Source: Escherichia virus TH13. Taken from it: a stretch of 45,377 nt of DNA. This document shows, in pieces, positions 16,690 through 24,460 of the stretch (position 1 is its first letter; each line of letters begins with the position of its first letter). The stretch lies in the sequence record MT446391.1, one strand, 5' to 3'. The position numbers and the translations under genes were made by a program. Under the pieces are notes generated by a model, which was given only the letters and a program-made list of their open reading frames with translations, did no database searches and was not told where the DNA came from.

Positions 16690-17297
16690 CCACGTTTAAA
16701 TTGTACGGCGTCTTAGGGCGTCGTTTTGGTAAAGTGCATAAGCTGGACTGCTTCACACCGGGAGAAGGCATCACCGGCCTGTGTGTGAAGTTGCCAGGGT
16801 TACAAGACTTTTTAATGTCGGCCCACCTGGACAATATGATGTTCAAGGTGCGCAAAGGCAACCACACGATGACCGGTTATGATGAGCTTGGCGAGTTCCA
16901 CGGCGACCGCGTCGTTACCATCGCGCCGGTTATGACGGGGGCAAAAAGCGGACTGGGCCAATTGCTGGCGGGTGTCGCGATTGTAGTGGCGTCGTTCTAT
17001 ACTGGCGGACTTGCTACTGCCGCTTTCGGGGCTTCGGCTGCAACCGCTGCCGCTATCGGTACGGCTACATTTTCGTTTGGCATGTCGCTTGCGCTGGGCG
17101 GTGCTATGCAATTGCTGTCGCCGCAGCCGAAAGGATTGCAGACCCGGCAGGACGTGGATAACAAAGCGTCGTATGCGTTCGGCGGCCCAGTAAACACGAC
17201 CGCGCAAGGTACGGCGCTTGGTGTATTATGGGGCGAGCGTGAGATCGGCGGCGCTATTATTTCAGCCGGAATCGTAACCGAGGATTTGAACGAATGA
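16680..17297 (+). CDS. tail assembly protein (gpI-like)
   Basis: 205 aa; N-terminal MAMTTFKLYGVLGRRFGK... typical of gpI-family; Gly/Ala-rich C-terminal region; synteny. Confidence 0.7.
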   Translation: MAMTTFKLYGVLGRRFGKVHKLDCFTPGEGITGLCVKLPGLQDFLMSAHLDNMMFKVRKGNHTMTGYDELGEFHGDRVVTIAPVMTGAKSGLGQLLAGVAIVVASFYTGGLATAAFGASAATAAAIGTATFSFGMSLALGGAMQLLSPQPKGLQTRQDVDNKASYAFGGPVNTTAQGTALGVLWGEREIGGAIISAGIVTEDLNE

Positions 17298-20200
17298 CGA
17301 TTGTCTATGACGTCACAGGCCATAAAGGCGGCGGTGGCAAACAGCACACCCCACAGGAGACACCCGATAGCCTGCATTCGCTGGCTAAAATCCGCATCTT
17401 GCTTGCGCTGGGAGAAGGTGAGTTCGAAGGTATTCCAGACCCTAACGAATTACGGCGGCGCGTATATCTGGACGGAACACCGATCCAGAATGCAGACCTG
17501 TCTGAAAACTTCCCAGGCGCGCGTGTGGAGTTCCGCCCCGGAACACAGCACCAGGATGTGATCCACGGATTTTCAGCGGTGGAAAGTGAGCAATCTGTCG
17601 GCGTAAAACTGGAAAACGGCACGCCGTGGGTGCGCCAGATTAACGACACCAGTTTGGACGCCGTGCGCATTCGCATCGGCATTCCGGCCCTGTACACAAA
17701 CGAAGATAATGGCGACCTGGTGGGCGGGCGCATCGACTATAAGATCGTTGTGTATACGGATAACGCGGACCCGCGTGAGTTCAGATTCGCCGCCGTTGGT
17801 AAAACAATGTCGCTGTATGAGCGTGACCACCGCATCGAATTACCTCCGAACGTTAACACCGGCTGGCGCGTGGAGGTGCACCGCATAACGGCAGACTCCA
17901 CATCGGCGAAAGTGGTTAATGATATCCAGGTGCAATCCATCACTGAGATTATTGACGCCCGCCTGCGTTACCCGCTAACCGCGCTGTTGTTCGTGGAGTT
18001 CGACGCTAAAGCGTTCCAGAACATCCCGCGCGTGTCCATTAAGTGCAAAGGTCGCAAGGTGTTGATCCCGAACAACTACGACCCGATTAACCATACCTAT
18101 TCGGGCGACTGGGACGGCACGTTTAAACGCGCATGGACGGATAACCCAGCGTGGCACTGGTACGATATTTGTATTACTGAGCGCTTCGGCCTCGGGCGTA
18201 GGATCAAGCCGCAAATGCTGAACCGGTACGCGCTATACCAGATTGCGCAGCGCTGCGACCAGATGGTAAGCGACGGCAACGGCGGGCAGGAAATCCGATT
18301 TAAGAATGATATGTACATCCAGTCGCAGACCGACGCCTGGACCGTGCTTAAGGATCTAGCTGCCATCTTTGCCGGTATGACCTGGTGGGGAAACCAGATG
18401 TTGAATATCGTAAGCGACCAGCCGGTCGCAGCGGTATCGCACACTATCACCAACGCCTCGGTTATTGATGGTAGATTCGACTACGCATCGGGTAGCCAGA
18501 AAACTCGCTATTCCACGTTCGCGGTAGCATACGGCAACCCGAAGAACCACTACGAAGACGCCATCGCAACGGGCCAGCGTGTCGAACTGGTGCGCCGCCA
18601 TAAAATCAACCGCCTTGATATTACGGCGATCGGCTGTACGCGTGAATCAGAAGCGCAACGCCGCGGTCACTGGGCGCTAATCTCCAACCAGCTTGACCAG
18701 CAAGTTAGCTTTAAGGTTGGCATGGAGGGACTTTTCTTTATTCCGGGTAGCGTAGTCGCGATCGCGGATACAAACATTTCTGGCGGCTTCGAGACTCGCG
18801 GCGGTCGCCTGTTGTCGGATCCTGGCACGCGGACGGTGCTGAACACAGACAGCGAAATCACGTTCCGCCCTGGCGATAAATTCCTGGTACGCACCGATAG
18901 CGGTAATGTGGAGACTCGCGAGATCGCCAGCGTCAACGGCAACAAGGTTACGCTAAAAACCGCACTGGATGCCGACCCGATTCCGGACCAGCCGTTTTGC
19001 GTTGATGGCGACGATATCCAGTTGCAGAAGTTCCGCATCACCGACCTGGAATATGACGACTCTACCAGCACTTTTTCAGTGCGCGGGATCGAGTACAACG
19101 ATAGCAAATACGATGCCGTTGATAATGGCGCTCGTCTTGACCCAGGCATCTTTACGCAAGTGCCTGACGGCGTAATGAAGGGGCCGGAGTCCGTGACCAT
19201 CACCCCGTCGCAGATTTCATCGCAAGGCCAGCTAATCACCAACGTGGATATTGTTTTCCCGCCGGTGAAGGATGCCGTTGTATATGAAATCCAGTGGCGG
19301 CGTACCAGCCTGCAGAATATGGAAATCCAGTGGGGTAACGACTGGGTGAACATTCCCCGCACGGCATCGAACGGTGCGCACATCCCGAACGTGTTTTCCG
19401 GAAACTATCAGGCGCGCGTTCGCGCAATCGGTATGGGCGAAATTTCATCCCCGTGGGTGTCGTCTGCCATCACGCCGATCGAAGGTCGTCTCGGTGGGCT
19501 TAACGCGCCTATCATCACAAACGCTATTCCGGGCCTCCACCAAATTCTATGGAAGTGGAACCACAACAACGCCGCTACGGATATATCATACACCGAGCTT
19601 GAAGTCCGCAAGCGGGGCGAAATGGAATGGAAGTTCTTGACCAACGTCCCATATCCGGGGTCAGACTATGCGCAAACGTCGCTGGAGTTCGGGATCTACC
19701 AGCAGTTGCGCGCCCGTGTAGCAGATAAAATCGGCAACCTGTCGGACTGGTCCGCCCCGTTTGAAGGCCAGGTGAGTGACAAAGTTGACGAGTACATGAA
19801 GGGGCTTGATGACGAGTTCTTGACTTCCGAGGATGGTAAACACTTCCAGGAAGCAATAGACACGATCCCGCAAGGTATCTATGAGTCTATGCTCACCGAC
19901 GCCCAGCAGCTATTCAATGCCCGCGCCGAGTATAAAGGGATTTATGCGGAAATAACGGTGGCGTATAACGTGGCGACGGACGCCCACAAGGCGGTAGCGC
20001 AACTTGAGACGTTGATCGGAACGCGCCTTGACGATGCGGAAGCGTCAATCCACACGTTGCAGACCGCGCAAAGCACGCACGAACAAGCGTTCGCCCAGTA
20101 CCAACAAACTGTTGCCGCTAAGTTCGGGGAACAGGAAGCCGCCATCCAGCAAGTACAAACGGCAACGGCAGACGTAGCGGGCGCACTGGCGGAGTATAAG

Positions 20201-20740
20201 ACCCAGGTCGCGGCGCAGTTCGGGCAGCAGTCCGCAGCTATCGAGCAGAAGATGACGTCCACGTTTAACCATGCCGGTGGCAACGCCACATACAGCCTTA
20301 AGGCGGGCGTGACGTATAACGGGACTTACTACGATGCCGGTATGCAGCTTTCAGTTGTGGCGGAAGGCGGTGCGGTTAAATCCCGCATCGCGTTCAAGGC
20401 GGACCAGTTCTACATCATGCACCCGTCGAATGGGTCGCTTACATCCGCGTTTATCGTCGACGGCGGGCAGGTGTACATCGACACAGCACGTATCAAGAAC
20501 GCGTCAATCAACTTCGCGCAGATCACTGACACGCTTCAGTCCAATAACTGGAATCCGGGCAGCAGCGGCTGGCGTATCGCGAAGGATGGCGGGGCGGAGT
20601 TCAACAACGTAACGGTACGCGGCAACCTGTTCGCGACCACGGGTAACTTCGGATTCTCCGGCGGGTCGGTACAGATCGACGCAACCGGCATTAACGTGCC
20701 ATTACCTGGAGGGGGTAGGGTGAAAGTAGGGACGTGGTAA
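17294..20740 (+). CDS. central tail fiber / host specificity protein (gpJ-like)
   Basis: 1148 aa; N-terminus MTIVYDVTGHKGGGGKQHTPQETPDSLHSLAKIRILLALGEGEFEG typical of gpJ-family; synteny after gpI. Confidence 0.85.
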   Translation: MTIVYDVTGHKGGGGKQHTPQETPDSLHSLAKIRILLALGEGEFEGIPDPNELRRRVYLDGTPIQNADLSENFPGARVEFRPGTQHQDVIHGFSAVESEQSVGVKLENGTPWVRQINDTSLDAVRIRIGIPALYTNEDNGDLVGGRIDYKIVVYTDNADPREFRFAAVGKTMSLYERDHRIELPPNVNTGWRVEVHRITADSTSAKVVNDIQVQSITEIIDARLRYPLTALLFVEFDAKAFQNIPRVSIKCKGRKVLIPNNYDPINHTYSGDWDGTFKRAWTDNPAWHWYDICITERFGLGRRIKPQMLNRYALYQIAQRCDQMVSDGNGGQEIRFKNDMYIQSQTDAWTVLKDLAAIFAGMTWWGNQMLNIVSDQPVAAVSHTITNASVIDGRFDYASGSQKTRYSTFAVAYGNPKNHYEDAIATGQRVELVRRHKINRLDITAIGCTRESEAQRRGHWALISNQLDQQVSFKVGMEGLFFIPGSVVAIADTNISGGFETRGGRLLSDPGTRTVLNTDSEITFRPGDKFLVRTDSGNVETREIASVNGNKVTLKTALDADPIPDQPFCVDGDDIQLQKFRITDLEYDDSTSTFSVRGIEYNDSKYDAVDNGARLDPGIFTQVPDGVMKGPESVTITPSQISSQGQLITNVDIVFPPVKDAVVYEIQWRRTSLQNMEIQWGNDWVNIPRTASNGAHIPNVFSGNYQARVRAIGMGEISSPWVSSAITPIEGRLGGLNAPIITNAIPGLHQILWKWNHNNAATDISYTELEVRKRGEMEWKFLTNVPYPGSDYAQTSLEFGIYQQLRARVADKIGNLSDWSAPFEGQVSDKVDEYMKGLDDEFLTSEDGKHFQEAIDTIPQGIYESMLTDAQQLFNARAEYKGIYAEITVAYNVATDAHKAVAQLETLIGTRLDDAEASIHTLQTAQSTHEQAFAQYQQTVAAKFGEQEAAIQQVQTATADVAGALAEYKTQVAAQFGQQSAAIEQKMTSTFNHAGGNATYSLKAGVTYNGTYYDAGMQLSVVAEGGAVKSRIAFKADQFYIMHPSNGSLTSAFIVDGGQVYIDTARIKNASINFAQITDTLQSNNWNPGSSGWRIAKDGGAEFNNVTVRGNLFATTGNFGFSGGSVQIDATGINVPLPGGGRVKVGTW

Positions 20741-20747
20741 ATGCGAA

Positions 20748-20767
20748 GGGGCCATATGGCCCCTTTT
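20748..20767. terminator. terminator after gpJ-like gene (possibly bidirectional)
   Basis: ggggcc-atat-ggcccc hairpin followed by T4; convergent gene on the minus strand ends inside the T-run. Confidence 0.55.
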
Positions 20768-21731
20768 AATATATGTTAGGAATGACGAGTAACGGGGTTG
20801 GTACTGCAATATTTTTACCCGGCATTTGGAATTGTTGCCGTGAGTAGTTGCCAATGACGCGGTTTTTAGCTATGCGCACATTATTGCCCGCCATTCGTAT
20901 ACCGTTCATGCGTACGTGGTTATAGCCGCCGTTGTTCTCAATAAGCGCGCCGGTGTATGAAAGCTGGACCAGGCTGTTACCGATGTACTGATCGCCGCCG
21001 CCGATATTAATAAGGCGGTCATAAACAAACGGCTTATTCACAGTTGAGAACGTGACCTGACCCTGGTTGTTTGTCATGGTGATGCCGTTCCCAGGGGTGG
21101 GCGGCGTATTGTTGAATATAACCAAGTCCATTTCAACAGCCGCGCCTACGTCGTCAATCCCACCATAGGATGCATTACGGACGATAATACTTCCGCCATC
21201 GAAGCCGACAGACACGTTTCCGTCGTCCCAGCGCGCGAACGGAACGCCGCTTACTGGTAACGGCATACTTCCGTTCACCCACACGCGCTGCGCATATTGG
21301 CAGGTCATCAGCCTGGATACGTTCGATATCGCGGTGAAGTCCGTCGAGTTCGCCACCAGTAAGCCCGCGTTGCGCGACCCCACCGGCAGCACTTCCATAA
21401 TCACCCCGCCCCATGAGGGAAGCCCGCTATATGCGTTATACGCGTCCTCACCGCGCAAGGTGATTCCGCTATCCCCGTTACGCTGTATTGACGTTATGTA
21501 AAACGGATCTGGCAAGACCAGTGTCTGGTCGAAGACTTCCATCACTTCAACGGGACTTGTTAGCACGACGACCAGATCTGACCCCGGCGTTAGCGGAGTG
21601 TTAATAGTTAGCGTCTTATCAGACTGGCAGCGCTGATAGAATGATGTACAGAATGACGGCGCGCGAAGTCCTGCGGTAATCTCCATGCGCGGCCTTCCGT
21701 CGTTGTAGTCGATAAGTATCCCAGCGCCCAT
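20766..21731 (-). CDS. hypothetical beta-rich (beta-helix-like) protein, reverse-oriented moron
   Basis: 321 aa from ATG 3 nt after the lipoprotein stop (track ORF from GTG 21740); Gly/Asn/Ser/Thr-rich repetitive beta-strand-like segments (NNGGYNHVRMNGIRMAGNNVRIAKNRVIGN); no signal peptide. Confidence 0.55.
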   Translation of the reverse strand: MGAGILIDYNDGRPRMEITAGLRAPSFCTSFYQRCQSDKTLTINTPLTPGSDLVVVLTSPVEVMEVFDQTLVLPDPFYITSIQRNGDSGITLRGEDAYNAYSGLPSWGGVIMEVLPVGSRNAGLLVANSTDFTAISNVSRLMTCQYAQRVWVNGSMPLPVSGVPFARWDDGNVSVGFDGGSIIVRNASYGGIDDVGAAVEMDLVIFNNTPPTPGNGITMTNNQGQVTFSTVNKPFVYDRLINIGGGDQYIGNSLVQLSYTGALIENNGGYNHVRMNGIRMAGNNVRIAKNRVIGNYSRQQFQMPGKNIAVPTPLLVIPNIY

Positions 21732-21733
21732 TA

Positions 21734-21955
21734 TTACCACTCCCGTGATTTAACTGATACCGTACCAGAGAAGTTGCCGTCACTATCGGCAGACAGACCA
21801 GTGAAGCGCATATCCACATCTCCGGCTGGCACTTTCTTCCCGTCGACGTAGCGCAACATGCAGCTACCGTAGGCAACCGTAATGCAATCGCCGTTGTTGC
21901 GTTCTACAGCACAACCGGACAACAGAACCGCACAAATCATAATTAAAGTTTTCAT
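21734..21955 (-). CDS. small lipoprotein (candidate receptor-blocking superinfection exclusion lipoprotein)
   Basis: 73 aa from ATG with strong RBS aggaga; signal peptide MKTLIMICAVLLSGC with lipobox LSGC; divergent from tail fiber gene; function inferred by analogy to Cor/Llp-type lipoproteins. Confidence 0.55.
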   Translation of the reverse strand: MKTLIMICAVLLSGCAVERNNGDCITVAYGSCMLRYVDGKKVPAGDVDMRFTGLSADSDGNFSGTVSVKSREW

Positions 21956-21985
21956 GGTATCATCTCCTATATTTGGTTGAGTTTT

Positions 21986-22014
21986 AGTATTACACCGCTC
22001 GATCAAGAATGCAA
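21986..22014 (-). promoter_or_regulatory. sigma70-like promoter for lipoprotein operon (TTGCAT-N16/17-TAATAC)
   Basis: -35 lies within an ATTGGTTGCAT motif overlapping the tail fiber start codon; coordinates approximate. Confidence 0.4.
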
Positions 22015-23859
22015 CCAATTTACGAGGATTTAGCTATGGCAGCGGGTACTCTATCCGTAACGAATAACAGCAAGGCGGTTGTCGGGGTAGGCACGACGTT
22101 TACCACGTTTACAGCTGGCGACTTCTTAACGCTGGTGGTAGGGCAAGTCCCATACACTGTTGCTATCGCGTCAGTCGAAAGCGACACCGCGCTTACGCTG
22201 GTGCTGCCGTTCGACGGCCCCACGGCAACCGATCTCGCGTGGGATGGCGTTAAGCGCGATACCATGTCACTGGCGACGATGGGCGTAACCGTACAGGCAC
22301 AGAAAGCATTGCGCTTGATGCTTGCAGATGAAAACAACTGGCGTGCAATCTTCGGCGACGCTGAAGAAATAACCGTGACGTTGCCTAACGGGCAGGTAAT
22401 GCAGGGTATGTCATGGGGATATCTGTCGCAGTTGATGAAACAGGTCGACCCAGTTGAGATGCGCAACCTGCAACAGCAAGCCGCCGCATCGGAAGCCGCC
22501 GCGCTGGTGTCACGCAACGAGGCCGAAGGCTTCAAGACTGAGACGGCAGGCATTCGCGACGCCACCAATCAGATTAAGGCAGACACACAGGCGATCCACG
22601 ACGCCACGAATACCATCAAGACGCAGACCGACCAGATTAAGACCGACACGCAGGCCATCAAGGACCAGACGAACCAGATCAAGACCGACACCGGCGTTAT
22701 GAGGGACGAGGCAAACACCGCGAAGACTGACGCGCAAGCCGCCAGCACTGCCGCGCAGGGATATCGCGACCAGGCCGAGGAATGGGCGCAAAGCGTTAAC
22801 GCGGATAACCTGCTAACCAAATCCGGCAACCTCGCGGGGCTTGCGGACAAAAGTGCGTCGTGGGCTAACCTTATGCCGTCCGGCCCGCTTCGAGTAGGCG
22901 CTGATCCCGTCGACAATCTGGACGCTGCGACTAGAGGATGGGTGTGGCGCGGTCTTGATGACGTGGGGGTGTGGGCCTTACGCAATAACTATGCTTCGGA
23001 ACCCGCTGGCGGCGCAGAAGTATACGGCGGTCGCTTCGACTCATCTGCGAACGTCGCAGGGGCCGAAAAATACAGAATGTCGCTGCAACTTCAGGGATTT
23101 AATAACGTAGACGCCTGGACACGTTTGGTTACCGCTGACGTCCGCAGCATGGTGAACGCGGCGACGTGGGACTTTAAGATCGATGGTAAGTTGCTTTTCA
23201 ACAAAGGATTGGTTACATCATCCATCTCGGCGTCGCCCGGTAACACCTATGTCACCCTTGCGAATACATGGAGTGACAGCCAATACTCAGGCCACGTAGG
23301 TTTTGTCGGAGGGGGAACTGGGGTGTCTAATGGTGGGTGGCGTAACTTTATTTCGTTCGGGGCGCTGATCCACCCACTAGCCGGTAACTCACACCCCCAC
23401 GCTATGATTTCGCAGGTCTTTGACTATGATTTGTCGACTGGGGTACAGCCCAACGGCGATATCGTTCGAAACACAACATTCAACCCCGAAGCATACGATA
23501 TTACTTTCGGCAACAACTCAGGGACTGTTAACTATCTTTTTTCAAAGTCCCCAGTATCCGACAGGGCGCTGAAGCATGATATCGCCAGGATCGATACTCA
23601 AGTCGCGTACGATAACGTTATGGCTATGGAGTACTCGTCCTTTGTTTATAACTACGACAAAAAAGAGACGGTTAGACGTGGTTTTATCGCGCAGCAGTTG
23701 GAAGAGATCGACCCGCAGTATGTCCGTAAGTACGCCAACGCAACCGGTAAAGAGTCTCTGGCATTGGATGAAAACGTTCTACTACTGGACCTTATCGCGA
23801 CTGTTCAGCATTTAGCGGCAAAGGTTGAAGCCTTAGAAAGTAAGTTAGCGGATAAATAA
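22009..23859 (+). CDS. tail fiber protein with C-terminal intramolecular chaperone (peptidase S74-like) domain
   Basis: 616 aa; repeated xTxxIKxDTQAIxD heptad-like repeats; C-terminal SDRALKHDIARIDTQVAYDNVMAMEYSSFVYNYDKKETVRRGFIAQQLEEIDPQYV matches the self-cleaving chaperone domain of phage fibers/tailspikes. Confidence 0.8.
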   Translation: MQPIYEDLAMAAGTLSVTNNSKAVVGVGTTFTTFTAGDFLTLVVGQVPYTVAIASVESDTALTLVLPFDGPTATDLAWDGVKRDTMSLATMGVTVQAQKALRLMLADENNWRAIFGDAEEITVTLPNGQVMQGMSWGYLSQLMKQVDPVEMRNLQQQAAASEAAALVSRNEAEGFKTETAGIRDATNQIKADTQAIHDATNTIKTQTDQIKTDTQAIKDQTNQIKTDTGVMRDEANTAKTDAQAASTAAQGYRDQAEEWAQSVNADNLLTKSGNLAGLADKSASWANLMPSGPLRVGADPVDNLDAATRGWVWRGLDDVGVWALRNNYASEPAGGAEVYGGRFDSSANVAGAEKYRMSLQLQGFNNVDAWTRLVTADVRSMVNAATWDFKIDGKLLFNKGLVTSSISASPGNTYVTLANTWSDSQYSGHVGFVGGGTGVSNGGWRNFISFGALIHPLAGNSHPHAMISQVFDYDLSTGVQPNGDIVRNTTFNPEAYDITFGNNSGTVNYLFSKSPVSDRALKHDIARIDTQVAYDNVMAMEYSSFVYNYDKKETVRRGFIAQQLEEIDPQYVRKYANATGKESLALDENVLLLDLIATVQHLAAKVEALESKLADK

Positions 23860-23865
23860 GGAGAA

Positions 23866-23886
23866 GGGGCCATACGGCCCCTTTTT
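23866..23886. terminator. bidirectional terminator between late and early arms
   Basis: ggggcc-atac-ggcccc hairpin followed by T5; convergent genes on both sides. Confidence 0.65.
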
Positions 23887-24460
23887 AGTTTGAGTTTTCC
23901 CAGTCCATTTTGCGCCGCACCAGCGGACTCTCGTAATACTCCTTACCCTCCACTTCCACCAAAGGCCAGTCGTTCACGATTACGTACGGTTCCGCGATAT
24001 CCTCAATCACGCCGTGCGCGCTATGTTGCCCGAACGCTACGCCAACCAGGATGACACCGGCAACTCGACGGGATAGATATTCTCGAGCGCAACGTGCCTC
24101 GACCAGTCCGCGACGGATGCCGCTGGTGGCTTTGACCTCGTAGGTCCAGACGGCATCAATCATGTGCTCACGGAAGTCGGGGCCGGACTTAACCTTGCGC
24201 TTACCGACCATGATAATATCGCCGCGGTCGATAGTATTTGCGCTAAACAGGCCAGTACGCATAAGCAAACCTTGCGGGATACAACTACGCCCGCCTGCCA
24301 GCCCTTCAAGGTACATGCCTGCAAACATCTCGCCCAGCACACCGACAAGACGGCTTTGCTTGCACGCGTCAGACTTTAAGCGCCACTGGTCAAACTCGAC
24401 GCTTGCTAACATTGCCGCGATGTGGAATTGTTTACCGGTTATTTCATATTCGCCGTACAT
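23885..24460 (-). CDS. hypothetical protein (possible PD-(D/E)XK-like nuclease)
   Basis: 191 aa; GDIIMV ... YEVK arrangement weakly reminiscent of PD-(D/E)XK; preceded by UUCG-tetraloop hairpin gcgggc-ttcg-gcccgc; last gene of early arm. Confidence 0.5.
   Translation of the reverse strand: MYGEYEITGKQFHIAAMLASVEFDQWRLKSDACKQSRLVGVLGEMFAGMYLEGLAGGRSCIPQGLLMRTGLFSANTIDRGDIIMVGKRKVKSGPDFREHMIDAVWTYEVKATSGIRRGLVEARCAREYLSRRVAGVILVGVAFGQHSAHGVIEDIAEPYVIVNDWPLVEVEGKEYYESPLVRRKMDWENSN

Follow-up and report, generated by a model that had tools for sequence, protein, structure and literature searches.

A predicted LptD-type locus for a receptor-binding protein and an exclusion lipoprotein in Escherichia virus TH13

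Receptor-binding protein loci of small siphoviruses

In small siphoviruses, the stretch directly downstream of gpJ holds allelic loci that Maffei et al. described in 2021 as 'bona fide RBP loci' (PMC8594841). Such loci, found in the Drexlerviridae and in Dhillonvirus, Nonagvirus and Seuratvirus, encode a receptor-binding protein (RBP) and the cognate protein for superinfection exclusion, and the terminal receptor of a phage corresponds to its allele (PMC8594841). The loci are exchanged horizontally and set specificity, and mutants resistant to one of the phages, Oekolampad, were mapped to lptD (PMC8594841).

The mechanism was solved by Dunbar et al. (PNAS 2025, PMC12685063), who obtained cryo-EM structures of RBP_Oeko-LptDE (9RPT, 9RPW, 9RQI) and of Rtp45-LptDE (9RPS). 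RBP_Oeko inserts deeply into the open-state translocon, with an interface of ~1,700 Å² and contacts to EL3-5 and EL11; infection by Oekolampad depends on the LptD loops EL4, EL5 and EL11, and the LptD substitutions D352Y and Y671N abolish both infection and the binding of RBP_Oeko in vitro (PMC12685063). Rtp45, the exclusion lipoprotein, docks to LptD from the periplasm; its hairpin shifts EL4 by as much as 20 Å, so that the RBP can no longer bind (PMC12685063). The lipoprotein of Oekolampad, SE_Oeko, could not be expressed in that study, and the exclusion structure is that of Rtp45; RBP_Oeko was expressed and active without the lipoprotein (PMC12685063).

The same logic, a monomeric tail-tip RBP with an adjacent small periplasmic lipoprotein, applies to pb5 (oad)/Llp of T5 and to Cor of T1, phi80 and N15 (PMC9586334). 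Like Rtp45, these lipoproteins change the extracellular loops of the receptor from inside (PMC12685063, PMC9586334); unlike the LptD-linked pairs, however, the T5 and Cor systems are directed to FhuA, a TonB-dependent transporter, and they work by long-range allostery, in contrast to the steric loop displacement of the Rtp45 type (PMC12685063).

LptD use can also be followed through sequence families. According to a 2026 preprint, membership of one RBP family, delimited at >30% identity, goes with LptD use, with no exception so far in the Drexlerviridae and relatives, and Bas83-85 have been assigned to LptD from their RBP locus (Humolli et al. 2025, PMC11990801, and the 2026 preprint). One further phage, Bas01, requires NupG besides LptD, through a domain of J (2026 preprint).

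Layout of the locus in a Dhillonvirus genome

The window analysed here is the whole stretch of 45,377 nucleotides from Escherichia virus TH13 (MT446391.1), an essentially complete Dhillonvirus genome. A preliminary description of this DNA had pointed to a two-gene minus-strand cassette between the gpJ-like and side tail fibre genes. The cassette is present as claimed: both ORFs can be read, they are co-oriented, and they are flanked on either side by a plus-strand tail gene. The four genes are the following.

17294..20740, plus strand: gpJ-like central tail fibre / tail tip protein, 1148 aa (PF24801, PF13550, PF09327; phrog_31 'central tail fiber J')
20766..21731, minus strand: predicted RBP gene, 321 aa and stop, DUF6453 / Rtp44 / RBP_Oeko family (PF20051, PDB 9rpt_C, identity to relatives)
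21734..21955, minus strand: predicted superinfection-exclusion lipoprotein gene, 73 aa and stop, PF24052 / Rtp45 / SE_Oeko family (PF24052 profile, homologues, lipobox)
22036..23859, plus strand: lateral tail fibre with a C-terminal intramolecular chaperone (PF13884 Peptidase_S74 at residues 517-572; phrog_1980 tail fibre)

Both ORFs of the cassette are real genes, with profile scores far above chance (75.6 bits against a cut-off of 27 for PF24052, 403.7 bits against 25 for PF20051). The first gene of the pair runs from an ATG at 21955 to a stop at 21736-21734 and the second from an ATG at 21731 to a stop at 20768-20766. The end of the second gene (20766) is separated from the J stop (20740) by 25 nt, and the RBP gene thus adjoins the gpJ homologue. 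The J-like protein is 95% identical to J of Oekolampad and is presumed to be the carrier of the 321-residue protein. On the other side, the longest ORF of the lateral tail fibre gene starts at 22009, and the equivalent of 22036 is the annotated start in relatives (Oekolampad, Bas84); this gene bounds the RBP locus there. No tRNA genes or Rfam families were found when the whole window was scanned.

The locus closely resembles those of its relatives. Over 20700-22100, identity is 100% to Escherichia virus TH11 (MT446389) and 84-98% to dozens of Dhillonvirus genomes, in which the local gene order is the same, and the order J, RBP, lateral fibre locus agrees with Oekolampad, Bas84, Rtp, OzMSK and mEp021. 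Oekolampad (Bas18), which belongs to the same genus, has the pair at the same position, in the same reverse orientation and with the same 2-nt spacing; the two phages differ by 38 substitutions in the RBP and by 2 in the lipoprotein. The alleles of Bas83-85 are near-identical to the TH13 locus, and Bas84 has the same cassette in the same orientation. In Rtp, which belongs to another phage family, the Drexlerviridae, the lipoprotein gene (rtp45) likewise lies directly upstream of the RBP gene (rtp44), the pair is convergent with J, and the two proteins fall in the same families (PF20051, 379.5 bits; PF24052, 128 bits), the anchor cysteine and the disulfide pair of the TH13 lipoprotein being kept; unlike in TH13, however, the two genes overlap by 1 nt, and identity is down to 33% for the RBP and 36% for the lipoprotein.

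All together, these comparisons make it very probable that the cassette is the allelic RBP locus found downstream of gpJ, in its LptD-specific form, and no feature of the sequence speaks against this. It would correspond to the LptD-linked allele of the small-siphovirus RBP locus of the BASEL phages, with no substantive difference. The pairing of an RBP with an exclusion lipoprotein is already known, the locus type since 2021 and the mechanism since 2025, and since the pair has been described and solved in a very close relative, the finding is real but ordinary. The preliminary description had seen no obvious precedent for the 321-residue partner; precedents are T5 pb5/Llp (PMC9586334), rtp44/rtp45 of Rtp and the RBP loci of 2021 (PMC8594841). 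Little is added as discovery: in the phage whose mechanism was worked out in 2025, the RBP shares 88% and the lipoprotein 97% of its residues with its TH13 counterpart. The practical gain lies elsewhere: the terminal receptor of this phage becomes predictable as LptD, and the labels that the databases give to the two genes ('DUF6453', 'membrane protein / moron', 'hypothetical protein') are seen to be outdated.

The 321-residue protein and its predicted receptor

The 321-residue protein is a full-length member of PF20051 (DUF6453; E 6e-121), its residues 4-297 aligning to profile positions 1-290 of 291. In the PDB it matches 'Tail fiber protein' of 9rpt_C / 9rpw / 9rqi (E 1.6e-190, residues 1-321 to 1-321), and this end-to-end match is one sequence: chain C of 9RPT, 9RPW and 9RQI is bas18_0025 of Oekolampad, that is RBP_Oeko. 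The two proteins are 88% identical over 321/321 residues without a gap, 38 of the 321 residues being different, and Gln299 of RBP_Oeko, which contacts Ser350 in EL4 of LptD in the structure, is kept. Identity reaches 99% with Bas84_0026 and falls to about 42% with the RBP of OzMSK and 33% with Rtp44. Judged from these matches, the protein is very probably the phage's own tail-tip receptor-binding protein, which would make it a virion tail-tip component, and from the tail tip it is predicted to engage LptD on its extracellular face. After synthesis in the cytoplasm, it would join the distal tip of the J-like central fibre; its engagement with the receptor would then trigger irreversible adsorption and DNA ejection.

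This conclusion is at odds with the reading first given to the cassette, in which both proteins form an undescribed exclusion or host-interaction module in the envelope of the infected cell, the lipoprotein having a new kind of partner in the 321-residue protein. Such a module would fit two genes that are tightly linked, co-oriented and set apart from the tail operon, and PHROGs places the 321-residue family under 'membrane protein / moron, host takeover', a label for which we found no experimental basis. However, the protein has no transmembrane segment (max KD19 1.26), its N-terminus (MGAGILIDYNDGRPRM) shows no hydrophobic stretch resembling a signal peptide, it has zero PADLOC and zero NCBIfam matches, and its 88% identity is to a protein solved as a phage RBP on the outside of LptDE. 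By this identity the protein is probably a component of the virion tail, an outcome that the preliminary description had itself set against its proposal.

The arrangement of the family in other phages also argues against an envelope module. We compared 88 loci with RBP homologues, taken from annotated phages and from 80 IMG/VR contigs. The homologue is opposite to J in 11/88 loci (Dhillonvirus, Rtp, OzMSK and mEp021) and co-directional with J in 75/88, proportions that carry little weight because the sample is redundant. A PF24052-like lipobox ORF lies directly upstream of the homologue in all 11 opposite-orientation loci; none was found within about 4 kb in the 75 co-directional loci, which are mostly of the SPN3UB type (~52-55% identical) or from Klebsiella Webervirus. 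In SPN3UB and Kpn01BRG, the two annotated examples that we inspected, the homologue stands immediately after J in the tail operon, and in mEp021 it is annotated as 'virion structural protein'. Qualitatively, the pattern is nevertheless that of a tail gene to which a lipoprotein may or may not be added. With most sampled homologues running with J and having no lipoprotein nearby, we give an envelope module hardly any probability.

Nor does the protein look like a beta-helix, as had also been suggested. The profile searches called for in the preliminary description returned PF20051 and no beta-helix family, and neither Pfam nor PHROGs gave a match to one. Published models of the RBP family (Black 2025, OzMSK) show two lectin-like beta-sandwiches with tip loops; they contradict the suggestion and speak against a beta-helix tailspike or fibre. 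For the TH13 protein, the fold is known through these models and through the solved chain with 88% identity. Our own AlphaFold2 model, made from the single sequence, had a confidence too low for the fold to be read (pLDDT 29, pTM 0.17). The protein had further been called rich in glycine and asparagine, and this is true only to a moderate degree, Gly making up 11.2% and Asn 8.7% of the residues.

The conserved N-terminal residues, about 35 in number, were considered as a possible J-docking module common to unrelated RBPs. This idea found no support by tblastn: residues 1-40 retrieved 272 records, against 435 with the full protein, and nothing outside the RBP family. A single record matched by the N-terminus only, a remnant overlapping the end of the J gene in an 'UNVERIFIED_ASMBLY' record of Citrobacter phage HCF1.

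That the receptor is LptD is suggested by the family. With more than 30% identity at near-full coverage to a characterised LptD RBP, the TH13 protein falls within the group that the 2026 preprint links to LptD, and that group tracks LptD without exception so far in the Drexlerviridae and relatives. We could also imagine that the locus encodes an RBP and exclusion pair of the same family that has moved to a different terminal receptor, or that requires a further receptor besides LptD. The 12% divergence from RBP_Oeko leaves some room for this, RBP loci are horizontally exchanged and determine specificity (PMC8594841), the requirement of Bas01 for NupG together with LptD, through the J domain, offers an example (2026 preprint), and no receptor has been established for members from Klebsiella or for those of the Salmonella type (52-55% identical). 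However, the allele is 99% identical to that of Bas84, which is assigned to LptD by locus structure, and the lipoprotein and J are 97% and 95% identical to those of Oekolampad, so that a changed or additional receptor has, in our view, a very slim chance. We thus infer from homology the LptD specificity, the virion location and the exclusion phenotype of this phage. Under LptD specificity, the TH13 protein is one more natural allele, with 38 substitutions relative to a solved structure, and could help to map the tolerant positions of the interface; such tolerance is of interest for LptD-directed phage steering or for RBP engineering.

The lipoprotein, the gene junction and flanking signals

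The 73-residue protein had been described as a lipobox lipoprotein, and its sequence bears this out. The N-terminus (MKTLIMICAVLLSGC, followed by AVERNN) contains the lipobox LSGC at residues 12-15, with the lipid-anchor cysteine at position 15 and Ala at +2; residues 1-15 form the signal peptide, and the mature protein has about 59 aa. The only Pfam match is PF24052, 'Phage lipoprotein family', and the protein also matches phrog_4281 (E 4.5e-33) and, in the PDB, 9rps_D 'Phage lipoprotein' (E 2.2e-8). It shares 97% identity with SE_Oeko (bas18_0026), with 2 substitutions, and 36% with Rtp45. Across six aligned homologues, the lipid-bearing Cys15 does not vary, nor do Cys24 and Cys32, which align with the Cys30-Cys38 disulfide of Rtp45 at the same 7-residue spacing, in agreement with the published alignment.

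A role in exclusion of the Cor/Llp type had been proposed for the lipoprotein. The identity to SE_Oeko and the homology to Rtp45, which binds periplasmic LptD, speak for it. Searches of Pfam and PHROGs did not reveal family-level sequence similarity to Cor or Llp. The sole Cor match, to phrog_1119 (E 5.8e-4), covers residues 1-30; membership of the Cor family was rejected because this stretch is essentially the signal peptide with the first residues of the mature protein, and there is no Pfam match to Cor or Llp. PADLOC gave matches in 0 families and NCBIfam gave none. Judged from its sequence, the lipoprotein is of the Rtp45 type by family, not Cor, and probably Cor/Llp-like by function.

By analogy to Rtp45, the lipoprotein would be exported, lipidated at Cys15 and kept in the periplasm. 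There it would bind the periplasmic side of LptD and push its hairpin up the lumen, and this would displace extracellular loop 4, leaving LptD unable to accept the RBP. With LptD blocked in this way, no more particles of this phage, or of others that use LptD, would adsorb to the infected cell or, probably, to its debris.

Instead of acting in exclusion, the lipoprotein might be an accessory factor for folding or assembly of the RBP, or for host specificity. Its gene may share a transcript, and possibly translational coupling, with a late structural gene, and SE_Oeko itself was never assayed. However, the signal peptide and lipobox would take the lipoprotein out of the cytoplasm, where tails assemble, RBP_Oeko is active in its absence, the Rtp45 homologue binds periplasmic LptD and precludes RBP binding (PMC12685063), and most sampled DUF6453 genes lack such a neighbour. 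We give practically no weight to an accessory role. The signals that may govern expression of the gene pair are listed below.

21732..21744, minus strand: gene junction, with GGGAG at 21744-21740, still inside the lipoprotein gene and 8 nt ahead of the RBP start codon
21986..22014, minus strand: weak candidate for a sigma-70-like promoter between the divergent genes, found by eye (TTGCAT, 17 nt, (TG)n AATACT)
20748..20763, no strand assigned: perfect 16-nt palindrome GGGGCCATATGGCCCC in the gap where the J and RBP genes converge; terminator-like hairpin, bidirectional

At the junction, the lipoprotein stop and the RBP start read TAA-TA-ATG. The spacer is 2 nt, not 3 nt as previously stated, and the annotation of Oekolampad also gives 2 nt. 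The same spacing is found in eight loci, seven of Dhillonvirus and one of a 75%-identical relative (L013), and in Rtp, OzMSK and mEp021 the stop and start of the two genes overlap. With GGGAG placed 8 nt ahead of the second start codon, translational coupling of the two genes is plausible.

The preliminary description had also given the pair a sigma70-like promoter of its own. This was not confirmed: scanning for the sigma-70 consensus upstream of the lipoprotein gene returned no promoter with at least 9/12 matches, and the candidate found by eye combines TTGCAT (22014-22009), a 17-nt spacer and AATACT (21991-21986), with TG at 21994-21993, for 7/12 matches and an extended -10. The TG and the -10 hexamer do not vary among eight aligned Dhillonvirus loci; the sixth base of the -35 does (TTGCAT/TTGCAA). 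A ribosome-binding site, GGAG, precedes the lipoprotein gene at 21967-21964. A promoter upstream of the lipoprotein gene is thus plausible, and we infer that the gene pair is co-transcribed from this weak intergenic promoter.

All together, the lipoprotein and the RBP appear as one translationally coupled unit on the strand opposite to the tail operon, unlike in T5. Decker et al. are said to have found, in 1994, that Llp of T5 is produced early. If the TH13 pair were co-expressed late from a single promoter, the lipoprotein would mainly stop progeny from being wasted on LptD in the debris of lysed cells, and not superinfection, and it might perturb LPS export late in infection; we see only a slim chance of this.

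At the other end of the cassette, the palindrome folds with -16.9 kcal/mol on the plus strand and -15.7 kcal/mol on the minus strand (z-scores -2.7 and -3.4), and on the plus strand it is followed by UUUUAAUAU. A terminator consensus scan did not report this hairpin between the J and RBP genes; in mEp021, a terminator is annotated at the equivalent place.

Labels and relatives of the receptor-binding protein family

The family of the 321-aa receptor-binding protein (RBP; window 20766-21731, minus strand) carries the phrog_1265 label 'membrane protein; moron, auxiliary metabolic gene and host takeover', which has been propagated to the GenBank records of the homologues Bas84_0026, SPN3UB gp38 and Kpn01BRG CDS0035. 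Contrary to this label, no transmembrane segment was found in the 321-aa protein, and a receptor-binding protein of the family has been structurally characterised. The Pfam name is still DUF6453.

Among the 88 loci compared, a redundant sample, the DUF6453 gene lies in the same direction as J, the central tail fibre gene, in 75, and no PF24052-like lipoprotein gene is found within ~4 kb there. The Salmonella and Klebsiella versions are ~31-55% identical, and in the two annotated examples inspected, SPN3UB and Kpn01BRG, the DUF6453 gene directly follows J.

Loci concerned
L015-L088: IMG/VR loci
L089, 4501-5460: Salmonella phage SPN3UB
L007, 3001-3957: Klebsiella phage Kpn01BRG

A member of the family is also encoded by Gordonclarkvirinae/Kuravirus podoviruses.

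L008, 3830-4849: Bas92_0015, Escherichia phage JacquesWildberger_Bas92

Bas92_0015 matches PF20051 at 92.5 bits and the Oekolampad RBP (PDB 9rpt_C) with an E-value of 1e-10; it is located directly behind two tail fibre genes and ahead of the transglycosylase and ejection genes. Further podovirus matches were obtained in SU7, ES17, Paul and O18-011. As a podovirus relative of the siphovirus LptD-binding RBP, Bas92_0015 may be of interest.

Related loci under other host labels

Related versions of the RBP locus are present in phages whose recorded host is not Escherichia.

OQ221563.1: Acinetobacter phage NJ01; 86% DNA identity across the locus, RBP residues 1-40 90% identical
MG065665.1 / MG065663.1: Campylobacter phages A131/A134; RBP protein 62% identical
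GQ502199.1: Sodalis phage SO-1; RBP residues 1-40 87.5% identical

For NJ01 especially, contamination or mislabelling may be the source of the recorded host.

The lateral tail fibre gene and its surroundings

Scans of the window (1-45377) returned no tRNA gene and no Rfam family at the gathering threshold. Its ends share no exact direct repeat of 11-200 nt, even though it exceeds the TH11 record by 72 nt in length. An additional open reading frame in the opposite orientation lies directly downstream of the lateral tail fibre gene.

23885-24460, minus strand: 191-aa ORF

It has no Pfam match, and its sole match is phrog_10558 ('unknown function', E 6.7e-117). In Oekolampad a gene equal to it in length and position, bas18_0028, is annotated.

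Where the lateral tail fibre gene itself begins within 22009-22038 is ambiguous. The longest ORF begins at ATG 22009 (MQPIYEDLAMAAG...), a start that would place it over the possible promoter upstream of the divergent lipoprotein gene, and the start annotated in Oekolampad and Bas84 is the equivalent of ATG 22036 (MAAGTLSV...).
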